This document shows positions 4,395 to 48,324 of a DNA stretch of 49,653 nucleotides, one piece after another. Position 1 is the stretch's first letter. The number at the start of each line of letters is the position of its first letter. The DNA comes from Candidatus Nomurabacteria bacterium (GTDB taxonomy: Bacteria > Patescibacteriota > Minisyncoccia > Phycocordibacterales > UBA9973): positions 1-49,653 of the forward strand of contig JAPLXS010000007.1 in NCBI GenBank assembly GCA_026395965.1, in the 5' to 3' direction. The notes under the pieces are model-generated. The model worked only from the letters and a program-made list of their open reading frames with translations, did no database searches and was not told the origin of the DNA. The translations under genes and the position numbers were made by a program.

Positions 4395-4979
4395 ATGCAC
4401 CACATCTACCACACTCATGGATTTATACTTTCGTCTCGTAATACAGGCGAAGCCAATAAGATGCTTACTATCTATACTCGAGAGATGGGTCTTATTCGTG
4501 CTGCAGCTCAGGGAGTGCGATTACATAAATCAAAATTACGATTTACTTTACAAGATTTTTCTTATGTCAAAGTTGATCTAGTTCGAGGTAGGGAATTGTG
4601 GCGAGTTACTTCTGCAAAGCATATTTCATCATTTCCACTAGCGAGAAGCAATGCACTTTCTTTTATCTTGATAACAAGAGTAAATAAATTGATAGAGCGT
4701 CTATGTACCGGAGAAAGTCCAAATGAGAATATATTTGATGATTTTATTCAAGCATTATATCTACTAGATGATGAAAATATATCAGCCCAATCGCGTGAAG
4801 CACTCGAGCTACATCTTGTTTTGCGTATTATGAATAGTTTGGGTTATGTTGGTAATTCTCAAATATTAAACAATTACTTATCTACATCGTTTAATCATAG
4901 TAAAACAGAGTCATTGCTTCGAGATCGTCAGTCTATAATTTCTCATATAAATAAGGCTTTAAATGAGAGTCAATTATAA
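4395..4979 (+). CDS. recO: DNA repair protein RecO
   Basis: N-terminal OB-fold pattern (GFILSSRNTGEANKMLTIYTREMGLIRAAAQGVR...LQDFSYVKVDL) and a size typical of RecO. Confidence 0.7.
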   Translation: MHHIYHTHGFILSSRNTGEANKMLTIYTREMGLIRAAAQGVRLHKSKLRFTLQDFSYVKVDLVRGRELWRVTSAKHISSFPLARSNALSFILITRVNKLIERLCTGESPNENIFDDFIQALYLLDDENISAQSREALELHLVLRIMNSLGYVGNSQILNNYLSTSFNHSKTESLLRDRQSIISHINKALNESQL

Positions 4980-8323: not shown

Positions 8324-8337
8324 AATAAGAATAAAAA

Positions 8338-8368
8338 AGAACCGTTCTCTGATTACGGTTCTTTTTTA
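8338..8368 (+). terminator. Rho-independent terminator
   Basis: AGAACCGT-loop-ACGGTTCT followed by TTTTTT. Confidence 0.7.
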
Positions 8369-8397
8369 TTTACAGTAAAATATGCTAAAATCATCGT

Positions 8398-9823: not shown

Positions 9824-10891
9824 ATGGATGATAAATTTAAAAATGTACATATAAGTATCTCTACAAATACTCTTATAAAGATACTTCTTTTAGGAGTTTT
9901 GGTTATTGCTGTTATTAAATTATCAAATATTATTTTGATACTATTTATTGCCATAGTAGTAGCTTCTTTTGTTGAGTCAGCGGTAAAAAATCTGAAACCT
10001 TACATAAAAAGTAGGTCTCTTTCTGTTTTTCTTGTATATATAACTACTATTGGAATAGTCGTTGGATTGTCTTCTGTTTTCATACCAGTTTTTATCGAAG
10101 AGACTTCTGCTCTGGTTTCATCTCTTAGTCAGTATATTCCGAGTGGTAGTATATTGAATACATTTCAGCCAGATACAATCTCTGGAGCAAAAGATGTAGT
10201 TTCTAGTTTGTCCCACAATGCATCTCTATCTGAAATTATCAACAATACTCAGACTTTGATTTCTAGTATGTCAGGTGGTTTTATGGATATATTTGGTGGA
10301 GCTTTTGGTGGTTTATTTAATTTTTTCCTAATTATTATTATTTCATTTTATCTTTCAGTTACGGAAAGAGGTATTGAAAATTTTCTACGCATCGTTACTC
10401 CAAGTGATAGTGAAGAATACATAATAGGTTTATGGCAGCGTACAGAACATAAGATAGGTCTATGGGTACAAGGTCAGATGTTGCTAGGACTTATAATAGG
10501 TATACTCACATACCTTGGTCTTACTATTTTAGGTGTTAAATATTCACTTGTTTTAGCTATATTTACGGCATTTTGTGAATTGGTACCATTTGGGATATTT
10601 TTAGCAGTTATACCAGCTACTTTATTTGGATTCTTAGATGGTGGAGTTACACTTGCATTGCTCTCTTTTGGTTTATACTTTATACTTCATCAATTTGAAA
10701 ATTATTTAATATATCCTTTAATAATAAAAAAGGTTATAGGTATATCGCCACTAGTAGTAATACTTTCAATAATCATTGGAGCAGAGCTTGCTGGTTTTTT
10801 GGGTATTATACTTGCAATTCCAGCAGCAGTTTGTTTATTAGAGTTTTTAGATGATATTGAAAAGGATAAAATCCTTTCAAAAAATAATTAA
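9824..10891 (+). CDS. AI-2E family transporter (PerM/UPF0118 permease)
   Basis: Polytopic membrane protein with the characteristic C-terminal region (ISPLVVILSIIIGAELAGFLGIILAIPAA). Confidence 0.8.
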   Translation: MDDKFKNVHISISTNTLIKILLLGVLVIAVIKLSNIILILFIAIVVASFVESAVKNLKPYIKSRSLSVFLVYITTIGIVVGLSSVFIPVFIEETSALVSSLSQYIPSGSILNTFQPDTISGAKDVVSSLSHNASLSEIINNTQTLISSMSGGFMDIFGGAFGGLFNFFLIIIISFYLSVTERGIENFLRIVTPSDSEEYIIGLWQRTEHKIGLWVQGQMLLGLIIGILTYLGLTILGVKYSLVLAIFTAFCELVPFGIFLAVIPATLFGFLDGGVTLALLSFGLYFILHQFENYLIYPLIIKKVIGISPLVVILSIIIGAELAGFLGIILAIPAAVCLLEFLDDIEKDKILSKNN

Positions 10892-16959: not shown

Positions 16960-16998
16960 TTAGCAGTTAGTATCTAGCAACTAGATACTAAGTTCTAG
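16960..16998. repeat. CTAG heptad array, 6 units
   Basis: TTAG/CTAG/CTAA tetramers occur at 16960, 16967, 16974, 16981, 16988 and 16995 (period 7). The core is palindromic (TTAGTATCTAG-CAA-CTAGATACTAA). Confidence 0.8.
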
Positions 16999-17607: not shown

Positions 17608-17639
17608 CTAGAAGCTAGTACCTAGCTCCTAGTAACTAA
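17608..17639. repeat. CTAG heptad array, 5 units
   Basis: CTAGaagCTAGtacCTAGctcCTAGtaaCTAA, ending 3 nt before the rpsR ATG. Confidence 0.8.
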
Positions 17640-17843: not shown

Positions 17844-17845
17844 AG

Positions 17846-17887
17846 TCAACCAAAACACCCTCAATATATTGAGGGTGTTTTGGTTGA
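17846..17887 (+). terminator. Hairpin terminator after rpsR
   Basis: TCAACCAAAACACCCTCAA-TATAT-TGAGGGTGTTTTGGTTGA. Confidence 0.65.
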
Positions 17888-17969
17888 CAGGGGGGGGGTA
17901 AATGTTAAACTACAATAGTATATATTATAAATTAATTATTGTATTTATCATTTTACCTAAAATACAGGA

Positions 17970-27131: not shown

Positions 27132-27216
27132 GCCCAGGTGGCGGAATTGGTATACGCGCTAGTCTTAGGAACTAGTGGAGCAATCCTTGGAGGTTCAAGT
27201 CCTCTCCTGGGCACCA
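27132..27216 (+). tRNA. tRNA-Leu (anticodon UAG), class II, CCA encoded
   Basis: Acceptor GCCCAGG/CCTGGGC, anticodon arm CTAGT-cTTAGga-ACTAG, a long variable arm, T-arm GGAGG-TTCAAGT-CCTCT, and discriminator A plus CCA. Confidence 0.9.
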
Positions 27217-27260
27217 TAATAAAAAAACACTATTTAAAATAGTGTTTTTTTATTATGGTG
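27212..27260 (+). terminator. 24-bp perfect palindrome that includes the tRNA-Leu 3' end
   Basis: CACCATAATAAAAAAACACTATTT (27212-27235) pairs with AAATAGTGTTTTTTTATTATGGTG (27237-27260). Confidence 0.6.
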
Positions 27261-27423
27261 CAGAGAGCAATCCGTTGGTACGGCTTGCTCAAGAGGACTC
27301 AAAAAGACTGAGTATATATTTTTTAAATTACTATTTCGAAAACATACGAAGCCTATACCGAACCTACGAATGAGTACATTCGCCTACTAGGTAAGATTCA
27401 AGACTCCTCTCCTCTGTGCACCA
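27261..27423. repeat. tRNA-3'-end-derived repeat (family A copy), ending in a degenerate direct copy of the tRNA-Leu 3' end
   Basis: Hairpin GAGCAATCC...GGCTTGCTC lies at 27265-27290. The core GAACCTACGAATGAGTACATTCGCCTACTAGGTAAGATTCAAG (27360-27402) is the reverse complement of the 39090-39135 units. TTCAAGACTCCTCTCCTCTGTGCACCA (27397-27423) resembles the tRNA-Leu T-loop-to-CCA segment. Confidence 0.7.
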
Positions 27424-27474: not shown

Positions 27475-27546
27475 AGGCCTGGGGCGGAATTGAACCGCCG
27501 CATAGAGATTTTGCAGATCTCTGCCTTACCACTTGGCTACCAGGCC
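27475..27546 (-). tRNA. tRNA-Cys (anticodon GCA), CCA not encoded
   Basis: On the minus strand: GGCCTGG-TA-GCC..GGC-A-GAGAT-cTGCAaa-ATCTC-..-GGCGG-TTCAATT-CCGCC-CCAGGCC-T. The U73 discriminator is typical of tRNA-Cys. Confidence 0.9.
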
Positions 27547-27591
27547 TTATTTAAAACTATAAACTATTTTTACTAAAAACTTAAACATACA

Positions 27592-27652
27592 ATTTTGCAG
27601 AGGTCTCTGACTATATTCATCTCGCTCCGCTCCTGCCACTTGCTACCAGGCC
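27592..27652 (-). pseudogene. Truncated tRNA-Cys 5'-half copy (acceptor to anticodon loop) with a ~23-nt insertion
   Basis: It is part of a ~106-bp tandem duplication that also repeats the 40-nt upstream region (27541-27580 vs 27647-27690). There is no T-arm or 3' acceptor. Confidence 0.7.
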
Positions 27653-27721
27653 TTATCTAAAACTATAAACTATTTTTACTAAAAACTGAAATATATGATT
27701 ACCGAGTCATATTTCAAAATT

Positions 27722-27816
27722 AAATAGTATTTGAGAAATGCATTGCGCAGGCTGGCGAGCCGAGCATAATAAATTTTCAATAGAAAATTATGTGCGCATT
27801 TCGAGAAGAGCTATTT
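27722..27816 (+). repeat. Family B structured interspersed repeat, copy B1
   Basis: 95 nt running AAATAGTATTTGAGAAATGCATTGCGCAGGCTGGCGAGCCGAGCAT...ATGTGCGCATTTCGAGAAGAGCTATTT. Homologous to 45565-45659, 45741-45835, 48048-48142 and 48195-48289. Confidence 0.85.
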
Positions 27817-27837
27817 ATTTTAAAATTATCATTTTAA

Positions 27838-39030: not shown

Positions 39031-39065
39031 AAAAAGCCACATTTAATGTGGCTTTTATTTTTTTT
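39031..39065 (+). terminator. Rho-independent terminator
   Basis: AAGCCACAT-TTA-ATGTGGCTT followed by TTATTTTTTTT. Confidence 0.7.
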
Positions 39066-39215
39066 GGGTAGGACCGCGAGTACGCTTTTTGATTCTTACC
39101 CAGTAGGCGAATGTACTCATTCGCAGGTTCAGTACACCTATTTGGTAGGACCGCGAGTACGCTTTTTGAATCTTGCCCAGTAGGCGAATGTGCTCATTCG
39201 CAGATTCTGTACACC
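39066..39215 (+). repeat. Family A repeat, two tandem ~78-nt units
   Basis: Unit 1 is 39066-39138 and unit 2 is 39144-39215. Each reads GGTAGGACCGCGAGTACGCTTTTTGAWTCTTRCCCAGTAGGCGAATGTRCTCATTCGCAGRTTCWGTACACC. The core matches the reverse complement of 27360-27402. Confidence 0.8.
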
Positions 39216-39249
39216 TTTTCCGTTCGTGAGTACACTCACACGGAAAAGG
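39214..39249. other. Long nested hairpin
   Basis: CCTTTTCCG ... CGGAAAAGG encloses GTGAGT-AC-ACTCAC. Confidence 0.6.
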
Positions 39250-39289
39250 TTTTCAAATCCTACACGCAAGCCAAGCAGTTGGCTTGCTC

Positions 39290-39343
39290 CGACGCACAAA
39301 TGAAAAAACCTTCTTGAAAGAAGGTTTTTTCATTTGTGCGTCG
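39290..39343 (-). terminator. 25-bp perfect palindrome that includes the tRNA-Tyr 3' end
   Basis: CGACGCACAAATGAAAAAACCTTCT (39290-39314) pairs with AGAAGGTTTTTTCATTTGTGCGTCG (39319-39343). Confidence 0.6.
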
Positions 39344-39419
39344 GGTAGGATTTGAACCTACGTAGCCCGAAGGCGACAGATTTACAGTCTGTTGTAATTG
39401 ACCGCTCTACCACCGACGC
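39337..39419 (-). tRNA. tRNA-Tyr (anticodon GUA), class II, CCA not encoded
   Basis: On the minus strand: GCGTCGG...ACAGA-cTGTAaa-TCTGT-long variable arm-GTAGG-TTCAAAT-CCTAC-CCGACGC-A. Confidence 0.88.
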
Positions 39420-39425
39420 ATGTAA

Positions 39426-39464
39426 TTAGGTGCTAGTATCTAGCTTCTAGTGGCTAGTACCTAT
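39426..39464. repeat. CTAG heptad array, 6 units
   Basis: TTAGgtgCTAGtatCTAGcttCTAGtggCTAGtacCTAT (period 7). Confidence 0.8.
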
Positions 39465-39527: not shown

Positions 39528-40556
39528 ATGTCTCAACTTTATAGTAATTCAATATTTTGGGTAGATATTGAAAAAATTAAACCAAACCCATTTCAACCAC
39601 GTCGCGAGTTTGACGAAGATCGTTTGCGTGATTTAGCAGATTCTATTCGTCAGTATGGAGTTCTTCAGCCTCTTGTTGTTTCTAGAGAAGAAATAATAAA
39701 AGAAGATGGGGGTATTTCTGTTGAGTACGAGCTCATAGCAGGAGAGCGTAGATTGCGTGCTTCAAAATTAGCAGGATTACAACAAATACCTGTGATTATT
39801 CGAGTTGGTGATGATAGTATGGCCAAGCTTGAATTAGCAATTATAGAAAATCTACAACGCGAAGATTTAAATGCAGTTGAAAGAGCTAGAGCTTTTATGA
39901 GACTTGTAGATGAGTTTAAATTTACCCATACTCAAATAGGAGCCAAGGTAGGAAAGAGTCGTGAATATGTATCAAATACTCTTAGACTTCTTGTTTTGCC
40001 TCAAGAAATACTAGATGCACTTTCAGCTAGAAAGATAAGTGAAGGTCATACACGTCCTATTTTGATGCTTACAGATAGACCTCAGGAGCAAATGGTTCTG
40101 TTTAAAGAAATAGTATTCAAAAAAATGACTGTTCGTGATGCTGAAAAAGCTGCGCGTAAGATAGCATTTGATCGTGTCCGTAAAAAGGAATATTTATTAG
40201 ATCCTGAAATTGCGGAAATGGAAGAAAAGCTACAAGAATCCCTCGGAACACGTGTTCATATAGAAAAGAAACAAAATGGTGGTTACATAACTATAGATTT
40301 CTTTACAAATGATGACCTTCATACAATACTAGGTTTGATTAAATCTACAGAAGGTAGTAATCCAAATGCAATGTTAGAAAAATTTGCAGCAAGTCAGGAG
40401 TTACAACCCGCAGTTTTAATTTCAACTGAAAGTAATATTGGTGAAGAATCAAAAACTTTTGAAGATGATCATCTTGTAGATGATAGAACAAAAGAGGAGA
40501 TAGCAAAAGCTGAAGAGGATATTGATTTATATAATATCAAAAATTTCTCAATATAA
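39528..40556 (+). CDS. parB: Chromosome partitioning protein ParB/Spo0J
   Basis: IEKIKPNPFQPRREFDEDRLRDLADSIRQYGVLQPLVV, IAGERRLRAS and an HTH region. Confidence 0.9.
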   Translation: MSQLYSNSIFWVDIEKIKPNPFQPRREFDEDRLRDLADSIRQYGVLQPLVVSREEIIKEDGGISVEYELIAGERRLRASKLAGLQQIPVIIRVGDDSMAKLELAIIENLQREDLNAVERARAFMRLVDEFKFTHTQIGAKVGKSREYVSNTLRLLVLPQEILDALSARKISEGHTRPILMLTDRPQEQMVLFKEIVFKKMTVRDAEKAARKIAFDRVRKKEYLLDPEIAEMEEKLQESLGTRVHIEKKQNGGYITIDFFTNDDLHTILGLIKSTEGSNPNAMLEKFAASQELQPAVLISTESNIGEESKTFEDDHLVDDRTKEEIAKAEEDIDLYNIKNFSI

Positions 40557-40558
40557 TA

Positions 40559-40592
40559 AAAATCCCATAGGTCTGACCTATGGGATTTTTAT
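40559..40592. terminator. Bidirectional hairpin terminator
   Basis: AAAAATCCCATAGGT-CTG-ACCTATGGGATTTTT. Confidence 0.8.
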
Positions 40593-40596
40593 TATA

Positions 40597-42057
40597 TTAA
40601 TTATTACCAAATGAAAGAAATTTTGAAAGTAGGCTGTTTGATTTCATGTGGGCATGTATACGTTTTCGAGCAAGGCTTGTTTTTGCATAATCTAACCATT
40701 TTGCAGAGGGTTTAGAATTTTTGTTTGTATGAATTTCTACGATATCATTGTTTTTTAGTTTTGTACTAAGAGCAGAATTTTTTCCATTTATTTTGGATCC
40801 TTGAGCATGATCTCCTACATCTGTATGGATTGCATATGCAAAATCAATAACAGAAGAATCTTCTGGTAAGTCTATGATATCTCCTTTTGGTGTAAATACA
40901 AAAACTCTATTATTAAAGAAATCCATTTTTATTGATTTTAAAAATTTTTCTGGATCTTCTTTATTTTGATTTAATTCATGAAGTTGTTGCACCCATTCAA
41001 GATGTCTTGGTACACTTTTTTCATTTTTTTCTTTATATAAGAAGTGAGCAGCAATACCATTTTCAGCTTTTTCATGCATTTCATATGTACGAATTTGTAT
41101 TTCTGCTATTCCACCTGTTCCTGTAAATATGGTTGTATGCAAACTCTGGTATCCGTTTGCTTTTGGTGTGGCTATATAGTCTTTTATACGGTTTGGTACA
41201 GGTGTCCATTCTCCATGAATAAGTCCAAGTATATGATAACAATCAACAACAGATTCAACCATGACACGGAGGGCTATAATGTCGTATATCTTGGTTATAT
41301 CCATATCATTTTTCTGGAGTTTTTTCCAAAGAGAATATAGATGCTTTTGTCTGTAGTCTATCGTTGCATTTTTTATATTTGATTCTTTAACCTTTTCTTC
41401 AATTTTGTTTTTAATTTCAATTAAATATTTTATTCGAGCATCTTTTTTATCAGAAAGTAATTTTTTAACTTCTTCATATTCTTTTGGATATGCAAATTTA
41501 AATGCACCATCTTCAAGTTTGCCCTTGAGTCTACCCATAGAAAGACGGTTGGCTAGGGGAACATATATCTCAAGAGTTTCAAGTGCTATACGTTTTTGTT
41601 TATCTGGCCGAACATTTTCTAGAGTTTCTATATTGTGTAATCTATCTGCAAGTTTAATAACAAGAACACGTAAATCTTTTGCAACTGAAATAAAAAACTT
41701 TCTTAAATTTTCTACATTTCTTTCTATGCCTTTATATCTAACCATACCAAGCTTTGTAACTCCTTCTACTAAGTTTGCTATTTCTTCACCAAATTCTTTT
41801 TTTAATTCATCTTCTGTTATATTTGTGTCTTCTATAACATCATGAAGTAACCCAGCTGCTATAACAGTAGGACTCATTCCAAGGTCTGCTAGGTTTTGAG
41901 CAGTGCTTACAACGTGAATAAAGTATGGGTCACCATTTTTGCGAAGTTGTCCTTCGTGAGCTTTTTTTGCAAAATTATATGCCTTTTCTATAAGTGCTTT
42001 ATCTTTTTCTGTAATATTGGGTATAAAAGACAGTATTTTATCTATTGTTGGTATCAT
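40597..42057 (-). CDS. rsh: RelA/SpoT homolog, (p)ppGpp hydrolase/synthetase with a TGS domain and no ACT domain
   Basis: HD hydrolase motif (LLHDVIEDT), synthetase region (YQSLHTTI...EIQIRT) and a TGS domain (VFTPKGDIIDLPEDSSVIDFAYAIH). Confidence 0.85.
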   Translation of the reverse strand: MIPTIDKILSFIPNITEKDKALIEKAYNFAKKAHEGQLRKNGDPYFIHVVSTAQNLADLGMSPTVIAAGLLHDVIEDTNITEDELKKEFGEEIANLVEGVTKLGMVRYKGIERNVENLRKFFISVAKDLRVLVIKLADRLHNIETLENVRPDKQKRIALETLEIYVPLANRLSMGRLKGKLEDGAFKFAYPKEYEEVKKLLSDKKDARIKYLIEIKNKIEEKVKESNIKNATIDYRQKHLYSLWKKLQKNDMDITKIYDIIALRVMVESVVDCYHILGLIHGEWTPVPNRIKDYIATPKANGYQSLHTTIFTGTGGIAEIQIRTYEMHEKAENGIAAHFLYKEKNEKSVPRHLEWVQQLHELNQNKEDPEKFLKSIKMDFFNNRVFVFTPKGDIIDLPEDSSVIDFAYAIHTDVGDHAQGSKINGKNSALSTKLKNNDIVEIHTNKNSKPSAKWLDYAKTSLARKRIHAHMKSNSLLSKFLSFGNN

Positions 42058-42081: not shown

Positions 42082-42183
42082 TTATTTTGAAAGTTTTTTG
42101 TTGTTCTTTATATTTTCTCCAAGTTTATGTGGATTATGATTCTTGCACATTTTGTTACTGCATCTCTCTGGTATAGTTTTTGG
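42082..42183 (-). pseudogene. Displaced duplicate of the topA 3' end (last ~28 codons, preceded by an in-frame stop)
   Basis: 42097-42180 matches topA 42338-42421 over 84 nt with 4 differences, all synonymous third-codon positions in the topA frame. TAA lies immediately upstream in that frame. Confidence 0.75.
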
Positions 42184-42302: not shown

Positions 42303-42339
42303 ACAAAAACTAAAACATTTAGCGAAGGCTAAATGTTTT
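42303..42339 (-). terminator. Rho-independent terminator of topA
   Basis: On the minus strand: AAAACATTTAGC-CTTC-GCTAAATGTTTT followed by AGTTTTT. It overlaps the topA stop codon region. Confidence 0.7.
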
Positions 42340-44560
42340 TATTATTCTTTATGTTTTCACCAAGTTTATGTGGATTATGATTCTTGCACATTTTGTTACT
42401 GCATCTCTCTGGTATAGTTTTTGTGCCTTCCATCATTAGTGACTGACACATATCACAAATATTTCCAGTAGGTTTTGCTTTGATAGCATTTTTACAAGCA
42501 GGATAATCGCTACATGAATAGAATATTCCAAATCTTCCTTTACGCTCCATCATTTTTCCTTTTTGACAAGTAGGGCAAGTTATATCTGTCATTTTTCTTT
42601 TAACTTCTTCCTCATCTTGTTTTATAAATTTACATTTAGGATAACGAGAACAAGATATAAATGTACCTGTTCCATCGCGTCTTACTCTTATAACGAGTTT
42701 TCCTCCGCCAGATTTACCTTTTTTCTCTCCACAAGTTGGGCACATTTCACCAGTTTCTTTTGGTCCTTCAAGTTCAATTCCATCAATAGTTTTTGCACCA
42801 TCACAATCTGGATAGTTTGCACATGAATAAAACTTACCTCCGCGTGAAAGTTTTACAATCATATTTCCTCCACATTTTGGACAGAGCATATCACTAGGAG
42901 CTTCTCCCATATTTGTAGCTTTAGCAAGTTTATCTTTTTCTTTTACATCTTTCTGAAATGGAATATAGAAATCACTCAATGTTTTAGTATATTCTCTTTT
43001 ACCATTTGAAATATCATCTAGCTTATCTTCCATTTCTGCTGTGAAAGTATCACTTATATATTCTCCAAAATTATTTTCAAGAAAAGATGACACTACATCT
43101 CCGGTATCAGTAGGGAATAAAGTTTTACCTTCTTTTCTAACATAACCTCTATCTTCGATAGTTTTCATTATGGAAGCATAAGTAGAAGGGCGTCCTATGT
43201 CGCGAGATTCTAGTTCTTTGACAAGACCAGCTTCAGTATAGCGATTTGGTGGCTCAGTAGCTTTTTCAGTACTGTTTAATTCTAATAGTTTAAGTTCTTC
43301 TCCTATTGTAACTTCGGGAAGTTCTACATCTTCACCCCGAGCTCCTGTCTCACAAGCAAGCCACCCAGGAAACAATACTCGTGATCCATTTGCTGTAAAA
43401 TCAGGAATAGAATCACCTTTAATGTTTGCAGTAATTTTTGTTTTTAGTAATTTTGCATCCGACATTTGTGATGATACAACTCTTTCCCAAATTAATTTGT
43501 AGAGTTTATTTTGTTCCTCATTTGCGCCAGCATTTATTTGTTCTACATGTGTAGGACGTATAGCTTCGTGAGCTTCTTGTACGTTTTTAGATTTTGCTTT
43601 ATATATATGAGATTCTACATATTCCTTTCCATATTTTTTTTCAATAAGGGCAAGGATTTGATTCTGAGCAACTAAGCTTAGATTTGTACTATCAGTACGC
43701 ATATATGTAATAAAACCCTGCTCATAGAGCTTCTGGGCTATTTGCATGGTACGTGAAGGAGAAAATCCTAGTCTTGTACTAGCTGTTTGCTGGAGAGTAG
43801 AAGTTGTAAATGGAGCACGGGGTTGTCTCTTTTGTTCACTAGTTTTCAAATCTTTTACAAACCATTTTTCTTTTGTACCTAATTCTAAAATTTTATTTAC
43901 TTGTTTTTCATCTCTAGGTTCATCTACACAAGATAAAATAAGTTTATCTTTTTTATTTGTTTCCCAAAGTCCTTCAAGGGTCCAATATTGTTCAGGAATA
44001 AAAGCACGGATTTCTCTTTCTCTTTCCATTATTATACGAAGTGCAGGGGACTGAACACGTCCAGCAGAAAGTCCATATCGAACTTTCTTCCAAATTATTC
44101 CTGATAGATCATACCCGACGAGTCTATCGAGCACACGACGTGCTTCTTGAGCTTTTACTAGATCTAGATCTATATCACGAGGATTTTTGAGAGCTTCCTT
44201 TACTGCTTCTTTTGTAATTTCATTGAAAGTAACTCTTTTAATAGGAGCTTTGATTTTCTTGTCTTCATCTAGAAGTTCCTTTAAATGCCAAGAAATAGCT
44301 TCTCCTTCACGGTCCGGGTCGGTTGCGAGCATTATTTCTGTAGCTTTTTGAGAAAGAGATTTTAATTCGGATACTACTTTTTCTTTGCCTTTTGATATTT
44401 CGTATCGAGGTACAAATCCAGCGGGTATATCTAGCGCATCCTTGTTGGATTTTGGTAAATCTCTAATATGCCCAACAGAAGCGCGTACAGTATATGCGCC
44501 ATCTAAATATTTTTCTATTGTCTTTGCCTTTGATGGGGATTCAACTATAAGTAATTTCAT
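42329..44560 (-). CDS. topA: DNA topoisomerase I with four C-terminal zinc ribbons
   Basis: Toprim domain (LLIVESPSKAKTI), the active-site Tyr region (GFITYMRTDS) and C-terminal CxxC...CxxC repeats. Confidence 0.93.
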   Translation of the reverse strand: MKLLIVESPSKAKTIEKYLDGAYTVRASVGHIRDLPKSNKDALDIPAGFVPRYEISKGKEKVVSELKSLSQKATEIMLATDPDREGEAISWHLKELLDEDKKIKAPIKRVTFNEITKEAVKEALKNPRDIDLDLVKAQEARRVLDRLVGYDLSGIIWKKVRYGLSAGRVQSPALRIIMEREREIRAFIPEQYWTLEGLWETNKKDKLILSCVDEPRDEKQVNKILELGTKEKWFVKDLKTSEQKRQPRAPFTTSTLQQTASTRLGFSPSRTMQIAQKLYEQGFITYMRTDSTNLSLVAQNQILALIEKKYGKEYVESHIYKAKSKNVQEAHEAIRPTHVEQINAGANEEQNKLYKLIWERVVSSQMSDAKLLKTKITANIKGDSIPDFTANGSRVLFPGWLACETGARGEDVELPEVTIGEELKLLELNSTEKATEPPNRYTEAGLVKELESRDIGRPSTYASIMKTIEDRGYVRKEGKTLFPTDTGDVVSSFLENNFGEYISDTFTAEMEDKLDDISNGKREYTKTLSDFYIPFQKDVKEKDKLAKATNMGEAPSDMLCPKCGGNMIVKLSRGGKFYSCANYPDCDGAKTIDGIELEGPKETGEMCPTCGEKKGKSGGGKLVIRVRRDGTGTFISCSRYPKCKFIKQDEEEVKRKMTDITCPTCQKGKMMERKGRFGIFYSCSDYPACKNAIKAKPTGNICDMCQSLMMEGTKTIPERCSNKMCKNHNPHKLGENIKNNKNI

Positions 44561-44579: not shown

Positions 44580-44611
44580 CTAGTTACTAGTATCTAGTTG
44601 CTAATAGCTAA
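44580..44611. repeat. CTAG heptad array, 5 units
   Basis: CTAGttaCTAGtatCTAGttgCTAAtagCTAA, starting 20 nt upstream of the topA start codon (minus-strand gene). Confidence 0.8.
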
Positions 44612-45537: not shown

Positions 45538-45564
45538 GTAATATTGTTTTTATTAAAGAATTTT

Positions 45565-45659
45565 AAATAGCTCTTTTCAAAATACGCGCATAAAATTTTA
45601 CTAAATTTTTGCTATGCTCGGCTCGACAGCCTGCGCAATGTATTTTTCAAAGACTATTT
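45565..45659 (-). repeat. Family B structured interspersed repeat, copy B4
   Basis: 95 nt. The sense strand ends 27 nt before the dprA ATG. Confidence 0.85.
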
Positions 45660-45740
45660 AAAATTCTTTTGAATTCGATTGTAAAAATTCTGCATAATAT
45701 TTAATTATTATACACTATGTTATTAATATATATAATACGA

Positions 45741-45835
45741 GAATAGTCTTATCAGAGGGACTTGGGAGGCTGTCGAGCCGAGCACGAGGAATTTTTTAGT
45801 AGAAAAATATCCGTGCCCTTTGAGAAGAGCTATTC
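45741..45835 (+). repeat. Family B structured interspersed repeat, copy B2
   Basis: 95 nt running GAATAGTCTTATCAGAGGGAC...GTGCCCTTTGAGAAGAGCTATTC, ending 56 nt before the serS ATG. Confidence 0.85.
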
Positions 45836-45891
45836 TTGTATTATATGGATACTTATTTGTATATTATAATATTTTTTTATATACTGTAAGA

Positions 45892-48028: not shown

Positions 48029-48047
48029 GAGGTACGGGCCTACTTTG

Positions 48048-48142
48048 AAATATCTATTCTAAAAGGGTACATAAATTTTTTGCTAAAAATTTATTCAGTT
48101 TTCGTGTCGACACACTCAAAAGCCCGTTTTATAAGACTATTT
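48048..48142 (-). repeat. Family B structured interspersed repeat, copy B5 (most diverged)
   Basis: 95 nt with the same architecture. The central hairpin is GTGTCGACAC instead of GGCTGTCGAGCC. Confidence 0.7.
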
Positions 48143-48194
48143 CAAATTCGGTCCTTAAATTAGTATAATAAGTTGTGGAATAATAAAATTAATA

Positions 48195-48289
48195 AAATAA
48201 TCTTTGAAAAATACATTGCGGAAGGCGTCGGACTGAGCATAGCAAATTTTCAACAGAAAATTATGTGCGTATTTTGAGAAGAGCTATTT
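48195..48289 (+). repeat. Family B structured interspersed repeat, copy B3
   Basis: 95 nt, ending 35 nt before the dus ATG. Confidence 0.85.
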
Positions 48290-48324
48290 TGTTAATTTTA
48301 TGATATAAATCAAATCACAAACCA

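Follow-up and report, generated by a model that had tools for sequence, protein, structure and literature searches.

Parcubacteria genomes measure less than 1 Mb and are usually called streamlined and mobile-DNA-poor. The stretch analysed here, 49,653 nucleotides of a Candidatus Nomurabacteria bacterium (contig JAPLXS010000007.1; the window below), contains five copies of a palindromic repeat, family B, two of which form a head-to-head pair between dprA and serS. Several described systems are close to it. Rickettsia palindromic elements (RPE) insert in frame in genes and add a conserved peptide to the product (reviewed in PMC10969869). Like family B, they are palindromes of 100-150 bp in a reduced genome, comprise several families, occur both between genes and in frame within unrelated housekeeping genes, and have no known transposase. 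By description, RPE belong to another phylum, which makes homology with family B unlikely, and family B alone has a branched apex, invariant loops and a copy-specific stalk; furthermore, canonical family B copies are mostly intergenic with stop-rich ends, whereas the in-gene copies have altered ends. Conservation of ERIC sequences between species far exceeds what neutral evolution would leave. They are imperfect palindromes of ~127 bp, intergenic and occasionally intragenic, with a very variable copy number and an unknown mobilising enzyme (PMC10969869). As described, ERIC forms a simple long hairpin, in contrast to family B with its two unlike apical hairpins and ~15 invariant unpaired bases.

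REP and BIME sequences are likewise extragenic hairpin repeats that form inverted doublets of unlike types; BIMEs combine Y and Z REPs, an arrangement comparable to the unlike inverted doublets of family B. The REPIN-RAYT systems provide a further parallel, since a Y1 HUH enzyme is believed to act on their hairpin in single-stranded form, as DNA, and RAYT-like genes and small palindromes occur in the same genomes as family B. However, REPs are simple palindromes of 20-40 nt with a conserved 5′ tetranucleotide, whereas family B covers 95-130 nt with a three-way junction, and none of the Y1_Tnp genes inspected here is flanked by family B. Correia/NEMIS elements are short, non-coding and multi-copy with inverted-repeat ends; they can invert, RNase III cuts their transcripts at the paired ends, and the elements nest (PMC10969869). 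Unlike these and the MITEs (transposable elements of the miniature inverted-repeat type), family B yielded neither a target-site duplication nor a parent insertion sequence, and its most conserved part is the apex, not the termini.

Family B is a new family, previously undescribed, with an unusual conserved branched apex. A search of the literature on repeats, MITEs and non-coding RNA motifs of the Candidate Phyla Radiation (CPR) retrieved no description of it, and the RAAC4_OD1 genome paper mentions only unresolved short repeats. It is probably a palindromic DNA repeat of Parcubacteria, non-autonomous and mobile (or mobile until recently), of the RPE, ERIC and REP/BIME kind, because the copies are randomly oriented, the inverted doublets join unlike copies, sites turn over, one 130-nt pair is nearly identical and some copies are inserted in frame within genes. 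On these grounds the REP/BIME- or MITE-like option of an earlier note on this DNA is upheld. Its other option, a new structured RNA family, lacks support as the primary explanation, as there is no orientation bias, no promoter excess, and the in-gene copies are antisense. Each genome may contain some 40-80 copies of family B alone. The family has hot spots in common with three or more other hairpin families and has repeatedly added ~27-aa peptides to essential enzymes (Dus, cysteine desulfurase). This represents a second, independent instance of Rickettsia-type palindromic elements within genes, in a very different reduced lineage, and makes family B a good substrate for studying the mobilisation of hairpin repeats. 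It is of practical use as a tool, and also a hazard, breaking the assembly of metagenome-assembled genomes (MAGs) and inflating open reading frame (ORF) calls upstream of genes, and its clean stem co-variation lets it mimic a structured-RNA discovery.

Survey, fold and stalk of family B

An exact-pattern scan of one genome per species gave 30 loci in ~25 MAGs, almost all of them with the label Parcubacteria, Paceibacteria or Nomurabacteria; a Saccharibacteria label, found on a few, is probably wrong. A covariance model built on 35 sequences recovered 13 more copies in these loci that had not been chosen by pattern, and a metagenome scan keyed on the basal box alone, which is unbiased for the apex, added another 49. 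The covariance-model search that the earlier note had proposed thus led to a merged alignment of 93 copies (89 distinct) from ~65 Parcubacteria/Paceibacteria contigs. Density is roughly one copy per 10-20 kb, and subfamilies are common to several genomes, not genome-specific. No copy was found in viral contigs, phage records or plasmids. Rfam, also proposed as a check for a known family, identifies three tRNAs only in the whole window at gathering thresholds, and only chance microRNA-like matches on the dprA-serS pair at E up to 10. In a search for close strains of the window genome, an identical SerS protein was present in just one other contig, which has the same arrangement.

The consensus fold of the 93 copies is a three-way junction of a long closing helix (P1) and two hairpins (P2 and P3). 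P1 combines the usual box AAUAG-UCUU / AAGA-G-CUAUU, in which a G is bulged, with, in order, a 3x3 region that varies and a 6-bp stem of free sequence. P2 has 4 bp of free sequence, found in at least a dozen Watson-Crick combinations, and is capped by an invariant G-W-C-G loop. The 10-bp helix of P3 is A/T-rich, has one bulged A, carries an A-N-Y-A loop and is backed by covariation; its lower extension (e.g., GCACG/CGUGC in the right copy of the dprA-serS pair) has no such support. About 15 unpaired positions are conserved at 94-100%. Among the 89 distinct sequences, 97.5% of cells are paired vs. 78.2% in column shuffles, 30 of the 31 pairs have double-sided changes, and the covariation score is 0.54, a value that drops to 0.13 or less once partners are shifted by 1-3 columns. 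The long closing helix and the GC and AT hairpins proposed from the five window copies therefore hold on the 93 copies, and the compensatory differences listed among the five are real, but the GCGCA/TGYGC helix proposed with them is 57.5% paired, equal to shuffles, and has no family-wide support. The arms of the closing helix constitute terminal inverted repeats (AAATAGTCTT ... AAGAGCTATTT) plus the stalk, as expected of a MITE, and conservation is highest in the internal apex.

Three-dimensional motifs known from RNA were considered and rejected. For a loop-junction pseudoknot (P3 loop with UGC/UGG of J1/2), the variants do not co-vary in alignments judged by eye; a K-turn in P1 would not be a conserved motif, as some subfamilies have every position of the 3x3 loop paired. 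The element resembles a type I hammerhead in its three-way junction, its 7-8-nt first strand CU...GA and its 4-bp second stem closed by G-C and then GA, but this likeness is only topological: G5, A6, A14 and H17 of the hammerhead core are lacking, and no Rfam hammerhead scores at E up to 10. Some variants of family B accept expansions, namely a 34-nt extra hairpin in the P3 loop, or a GC-rich P3 with an enlarged P2 loop (L095:9277-9408; L062:2623-2726; L numbers denote compared loci).

The closing helix runs 8-17 bp past the 95-nt core in copy-specific sequence, giving a full unit of ~115-130 nt. The unit of ~95 nt described previously is thus the conserved core, and the locus-specific stalk had been overlooked. 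The outer flanks are unique to each copy yet mutually complementary (cognate -7.75 vs. non-cognate -3.69 kcal/mol, p about 1e-15). Closing helices are 20-40 bp long and the stalks take in stop codons and coding ends; in L008 the entire 205-nt spacer folds as one hairpin (-76.5 kcal/mol, z -8.7). Family B has a modest strand asymmetry. Core mismatches comprise 46 G-U vs. 11 A-C, but 20 of the G-U pairs fall at one position (26 vs. 11 without it), and the earlier suggestion that G-U pairs hint at an RNA-level structure holds weakly. Purine-purine mismatches in the core outnumber pyrimidine-pyrimidine ones (44 vs. 15). In the stalks G-T and A-C are equal (16 vs. 15), and purine-purine mismatches are still in the majority, tracking the orientation of the element and not the mRNA strand. 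In folding energy, the sense strand has an advantage of 3-9 kcal/mol over the antisense strand.

Template switching at quasi-palindromes is established in E. coli, and it can yield "compensatory" double changes without selection, which is a caveat on the covariation. It is a reasonable explanation of the stalks and perhaps of P1 and P3, and an unlikely source of the covariation in the 4-bp P2. At gene and tRNA ends the window also contains perfect palindromes with 16-27-bp arms and 0-9-nt loops (27211-27261, 39289-39344, 40550-40598, 17845-17888, 8330-8370). Perfect palindromes of 22-27 bp with 0-2-nt loops are plentiful, some overlapping tRNA 3′ ends (e.g., 27211-27261, 39289-39344); two palindromes reach 6-8 nt into a tRNA 3′ end, and the centre of 27211-27261 is CTATTT-A-AAATAG. 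The palindromes at gene and tRNA ends suggest a DNA-level upkeep of hairpin arms in this lineage.

A repeat search of the window found the family of the 45565 and 45741 regions again at 27720, 48047 and 48193. All five copies are intergenic and match one covariance model derived from relatives, with scores of 79-107 bits and E-values between 1e-17 and 1e-24, at the places where the earlier note had put them. The copies and their parts are:

45555..45669, minus strand: left copy of the dprA-serS pair; core (model match) 45564-45661; outer stalk aaagaatttt / aaaattcttt
45620..45631, minus strand: P2 of the left copy, GGCU-GUCG-AGCC, in which 4 bp carry the invariant G-W-C-G loop
45670..45728: AT-rich spacer separating the two stalks; both strands carry promoter-like hexamers
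45729..45847, plus strand: right copy of the dprA-serS pair; core (model match) 45739-45836; outer stalk atatataatacga / ttgtattatat with one G-U pair
45768..45779, plus strand: P2 of the right copy, GGCTGTCGAGCC
45782..45816, plus strand: P3 of the right copy, loop AGUA on an A/T-rich helix that has a bulged A and the lower extension GCACG/CGUGC
27718..27818, plus strand: third copy, 3′ of rbfA and antisense to it, near a tRNA; weak outer stalk; 98.4 bits (model match 27720-27817)
48036..48154, minus strand: fourth copy, left member of the second head-to-head pair, 18 nt past the FtsQ-like ORF; 79.4 bits (model match 48047-48144)
48183..48300, plus strand: fifth copy, right partner in the second pair, upstream of dus by 35 nt; 93.8 bits (model match 48193-48290)

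The two copies at 45565 and 45741 lie in opposite orientation with 81 nt of AT-rich DNA between their ~95-nt cores, and the distances from copy to downstream gene are 27 nt for dprA, 56 nt for serS and 35 nt for dus, all as first reported. The left copy scores 104.2 bits and folds with its flanks at -39.9 kcal/mol (z -5.9); the right copy, which belongs to a different subfamily, scores 106.9 bits and folds at -49.8 kcal/mol (z -6.3). The fifth copy folds at -34.2 kcal/mol (z -5.1), and with stalks three window units reach a folding z of -5 to -6. The fourth copy, with a GUGU/ACAC P2, is the most diverged in the window. Between the stalks of the dprA-serS pair, the spacer 45670..45728 has 4 promoter-like sites vs. 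2.8 expected, i.e., chance level. Pfam supports dprA, serS, dus, rbfA and infB as neighbouring genes, the first four as named before. The "FtsQ-like" ORF has no Pfam match in the window, and a homologue of it gives only a faint match to POTRA_1.

Orientation, site turnover and copies inside genes

The 143 ORFs that flank the copies are unrelated housekeeping genes, seven of them encoding RbfA. Between co-directional genes, 28 copies are antisense and 16 sense. Over the 93 copies, gene 5′ ends are faced 23 times in sense and 34 times in antisense; all four classes of end and orientation are populated, and 5′ and 3′ ends are faced either way at similar rates. The gap from core to ORF has a median of 37 nt and is at most 30 nt in 43% of cases. 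All 10 doublets are inverted (8 divergent, 2 convergent, 0 direct), with partners less similar than random pairs (0.61 vs. 0.68, p 0.016), and their spacers of 17-48 nt are taken up by the two stalks. Promoter-like hexamers directed in sense show no excess over those directed in antisense (129 vs. 132). Terminator-like sites are absent at either window pair, and separate classical terminators adjoin the elements in L005, L007 and L009. The earlier note was right to reject a pure leader as well as a pure terminator. The serS ATG of relatives is adjoined by a conserved TTTTTTTATATACTGTA stretch, downstream of whatever fills the spacer. Judging by its conservation, this stretch looks like the serS promoter; the dprA-serS pair lies upstream of it and is therefore probably outside the serS mRNA. 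Insertion into terminator loops was rejected as an account of the element sites, as classical A-tract/stem/T-tract terminators stand intact beside elements. A DNA-uptake sequence, an idea raised by neighbours such as dprA, recA and comEC, was likewise rejected: for that role the element is much too long and structured, and its copies are much too thinly spread.

Divergence among these genomes is deep, with 0.26-0.66 identity at four-fold sites. Among relatives with SerS ~88-92% identical, the dprA-serS spacer holds a divergent family B doublet (window) or a convergent one (L152-154); elsewhere it holds a "family C" hairpin (L157) or a CTAG-rich hairpin alone (L155, L160, L161). The spacer between the FtsQ-like gene and dus contains a family B doublet, a single copy, a "family A" hairpin, or nothing, depending on the relative. 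In comparisons of filled with empty sites (L009 vs. L008; L005, L007, L006), the indel corresponds to the element plus its stalk. Orientation and subfamily can differ at sites that are occupied in many genomes. In L107, positions 4571-4700 and 10560-10689 are 98% identical over exactly the 130-nt hairpin unit, with unrelated flanks, and the orthologue of one of these units in L037 has the same stalk with the core of another subfamily.

Two model matches lie within long ORFs, both of which are real genes. The copy at L088:926-1019 is antisense in dus and adds 27 aa relative to the window's own Dus (70% identical), and that at L012:487-584 is antisense in a cysteine desulfurase gene and adds 24 aa relative to solved structures, including PDB 9wep_A. 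Both keep the full fold and lack the stop-rich AAATAG box; for the L012 copy, the energy calculated with DNA parameters is -42.8 kcal/mol (z -9.75). The copies within genes are the decisive finding and match what is described for RPE (PMC10969869). Of 120 Paceibacteria Dus homologues, about half have an insert at one linker site (after GNPWLF; P0024-P0142). The family B peptide SKSTNISLLGNFSARASRPAQVFSQYVP or a close variant is found in ~18 of the 120, and at least five other insert types occur there; in all there are six or more unrelated sequence types (e.g., NSKFSQVLGRGRTRGQTSSKILIN, PSLRPPLSKGRVGEG). The Dus linker looks like a hot spot for in-frame palindromic insertions. A DNA-level model match also places the element within dus of L163 and L164. 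The cysteine desulfurase gene of L012 carries a second, unrelated long hairpin (L012:150-245) with 17-bp perfect arms, in frame and encoding ~25 residues (~182-213 of the ORF). In some contigs Dus is called at 348-350 aa instead of ~320 (L157 vs. L158, L161), apparently because the upstream spacer or element is open in frame.

Proposed mobilisation and rival explanations

The mobile unit would be the whole hairpin of ~115-130 nt, that is, the variable stalk, the usual basal box and the conserved three-way-junction apex. A trans-acting enzyme may recognise the sense strand as a branched hairpin and so give rise to new copies. The recognised strand would most simply be single-stranded DNA at the replication fork, as with HUH/Y1 enzymes of the RAYT and IS200 types. 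Recognition of a folded strand would explain why invariant loops, junction bases and bulges are found alongside co-varying stems. At the DNA level, template switching between the hairpin arms may uphold the copy-specific stalks, to whose maintenance it is a likely contributor, together with some of the stem covariation. Effects on the host (protection of mRNA 3′ ends, RNase III sites, promoter spacing) would be secondary. It is possible, if doubtful, that the three-way junction goes further than this and serves as the recognition module of a new structure-guided CPR replicator, with the folded strand copied by a dedicated enzyme of HUH/RAYT or other type, landing by preference in or near existing hairpins and in permissive protein loops, and the apex swapped like a cassette between stalks, or that the sense RNA is a new catalytic or protein-recruiting motif riding on the element.

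The transposase search proposed in the earlier note gave a mixed outcome. No transposase is among the recurrent families of the 143 neighbouring ORFs, which sample a small fraction of each genome. Four element-bearing loci contain RAYT-like genes: L163:11487-12200 is a 237-aa Y1_Tnp gene (IS200/RAYT-type, HUH motif HYH) 600 nt from the in-gene copy, and homologues occur at L004:3237-3914, L002:5040-5579 and L062:8197-8550. The palindrome ATATTCGGAAGTCGGACTTCCGAATAT flanks the gene in L163 and L004, occurs 8 times in 8 kb of L004, and is also found in frame once within a Y1_Tnp gene and once within an RNase H-like coding sequence (from translation; L006:3600); another palindrome, ATATCAAGGGCTACCCTTGATAT, flanks the more distant homologue in L002. 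REP-RAYT-type systems are therefore present in the clade, which makes a single-strand, hairpin-reading enzyme plausible as the mobiliser; the link of these Y1_Tnp genes to family B is by inference only.

Several observations weigh against mobility. The Y1_Tnp genes inspected (L163, L004, L002) have 27-nt perfect palindromes at their flanks instead of family B ends, and ~0.25 Mb of loci contained neither split family B ends around an ORF nor an autonomous partner. No target-site duplication was found at the L009 vs. L008 site, the L107 pair or the Dus insertion, where AT-rich flanks and diverged genomes preclude base-level resolution; in the Dus case, identity is 79% to the nearest homologue and 76% to the nearest uninserted one among the matches listed, too distant for nucleotide resolution. 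Near-identical intragenomic pairs number just one. Cores at orthologous sites are 85-95% identical despite saturated four-fold sites, and the rbfA 3′ end is occupied in the window, L012, L018, L024 and L029, so that many genomes are filled at the same site. Such conserved cores and occupancy could reflect purifying selection at the host level, not turnover. Finally, a stem of just 4 bp that occurs in a dozen or more Watson-Crick versions while its loop stays invariant resembles a functional RNA more than a typical MITE.

This last point leads to the possibility that the sense strand encodes stable small RNAs, in which the stalk would act like an rRNA-type processing stalk, RNase III would free the junction from whatever transcript reads through it, and the RNA would bind a protein or catalyse a reaction. 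The strong covariation (including that of P2 with its invariant loop), the ~15 invariant unpaired bases, the better folding of the sense strand by 3-9 kcal/mol, the enrichment of G-U and purine-purine mismatches on it, the closing helices of 20-40 bp and the conservation of cores where synonymous sites are saturated would all fit. Nevertheless, it is unlikely, given that orientation is random or slightly antisense to the flanking genes, that the 17-48-nt doublet spacers and 6-30-nt gene gaps leave dedicated promoters no room, that sense-directed promoter-like sites show no surplus, that in-gene copies are antisense to the mRNA, and that the same sites are taken over by other hairpin families. 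A more specific RNA role, in which a 5′ leader, riboswitch or attenuator would regulate dprA, serS and dus in cis, has a practically negligible probability. Three window copies do point into the downstream gene at 27-56 nt, but the family faces 5′ ends more often in antisense (34) than in sense (23), relatives with SerS ~88-92% identical have a flipped element or none before serS, Rfam gives no match, and the neighbours are unrelated housekeeping genes.

Hairpins may also be maintained by the host and act in either orientation, in transcripts or in DNA, for mRNA 3′-end protection, RNase III separation of cistrons or promoter insulation, with the apex as a frozen accident of descent. Copies do fall between genes of an operon or between the stop codon and distinct terminators of the classical kind, whole spacers form giant hairpins (e.g., the -76.5 kcal/mol, z -8.7 case above), the same spacers always hold some hairpin of whatever family, and REP, ERIC and Correia are known analogues (PMC10969869). 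We consider this distinctly unlikely, as it leaves unexplained the invariance of loops, junction bases and bulges across deeply diverged genomes as well as the in-frame copies within genes, and the dprA-serS pair is upstream of the serS promoter-like stretch and probably outside that mRNA. A purely mutational origin, with palindromes grown in place by template switching, neither mobile nor functional, would account for the perfect palindromes (22-27 bp, loops of 0-2 nt) overlapping the 3′ ends of tRNAs, for the stop codons and coding ends taken into stalks, and for the equal frequency of G-T and A-C there. As a full account it is very improbable, since the same asymmetric 65-nt apex at ~100 unrelated loci and in genes, as well as the near-identical 130-nt pair, would be left unaccounted for. 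A mobile or recently mobile DNA repeat is thus the preferred reading.

Other repeats in the window and in relatives

Other repeat families are present in the window and its relatives. The "family A" repeat, which contains GAATGTACTCATTCGCAGGT, lies near window tRNAs at 39064-39217 (two tandem 77-nt units) and 27356-27401, and in relatives a hairpin related to it replaces family B in the spacer between the FtsQ-like gene and dus (L155:5744-5870, L158:3781-3886). The "family C" hairpin has the apex ...CCGGCGCGCCCACACCTA (L001:2454-2542, L009:529-616, L157:3338-3500), and some of its copies share the basal box AATAGTCTT. CTAG/TAG-rich repeats of ~30 nt with stop codons in several frames are located at gene ends (window 16961-16990, 17609-17638, 39427-39456 and 44581-44610; L161:3399-3460).

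Direct repeats occur at two further places in the window. Between the 27720 copy and a minus-strand tRNA, a 59-nt direct repeat (27536-27594 / 27642-27700, 92% identical) copies the 5′ end and upstream region of that tRNA. At the relA/spoT-topA junction, a 93-nt direct repeat (42090-42182 / 42331-42423) has copies that are 94% identical and 241 nt apart, the second of which overlaps the 3′ end of topA.

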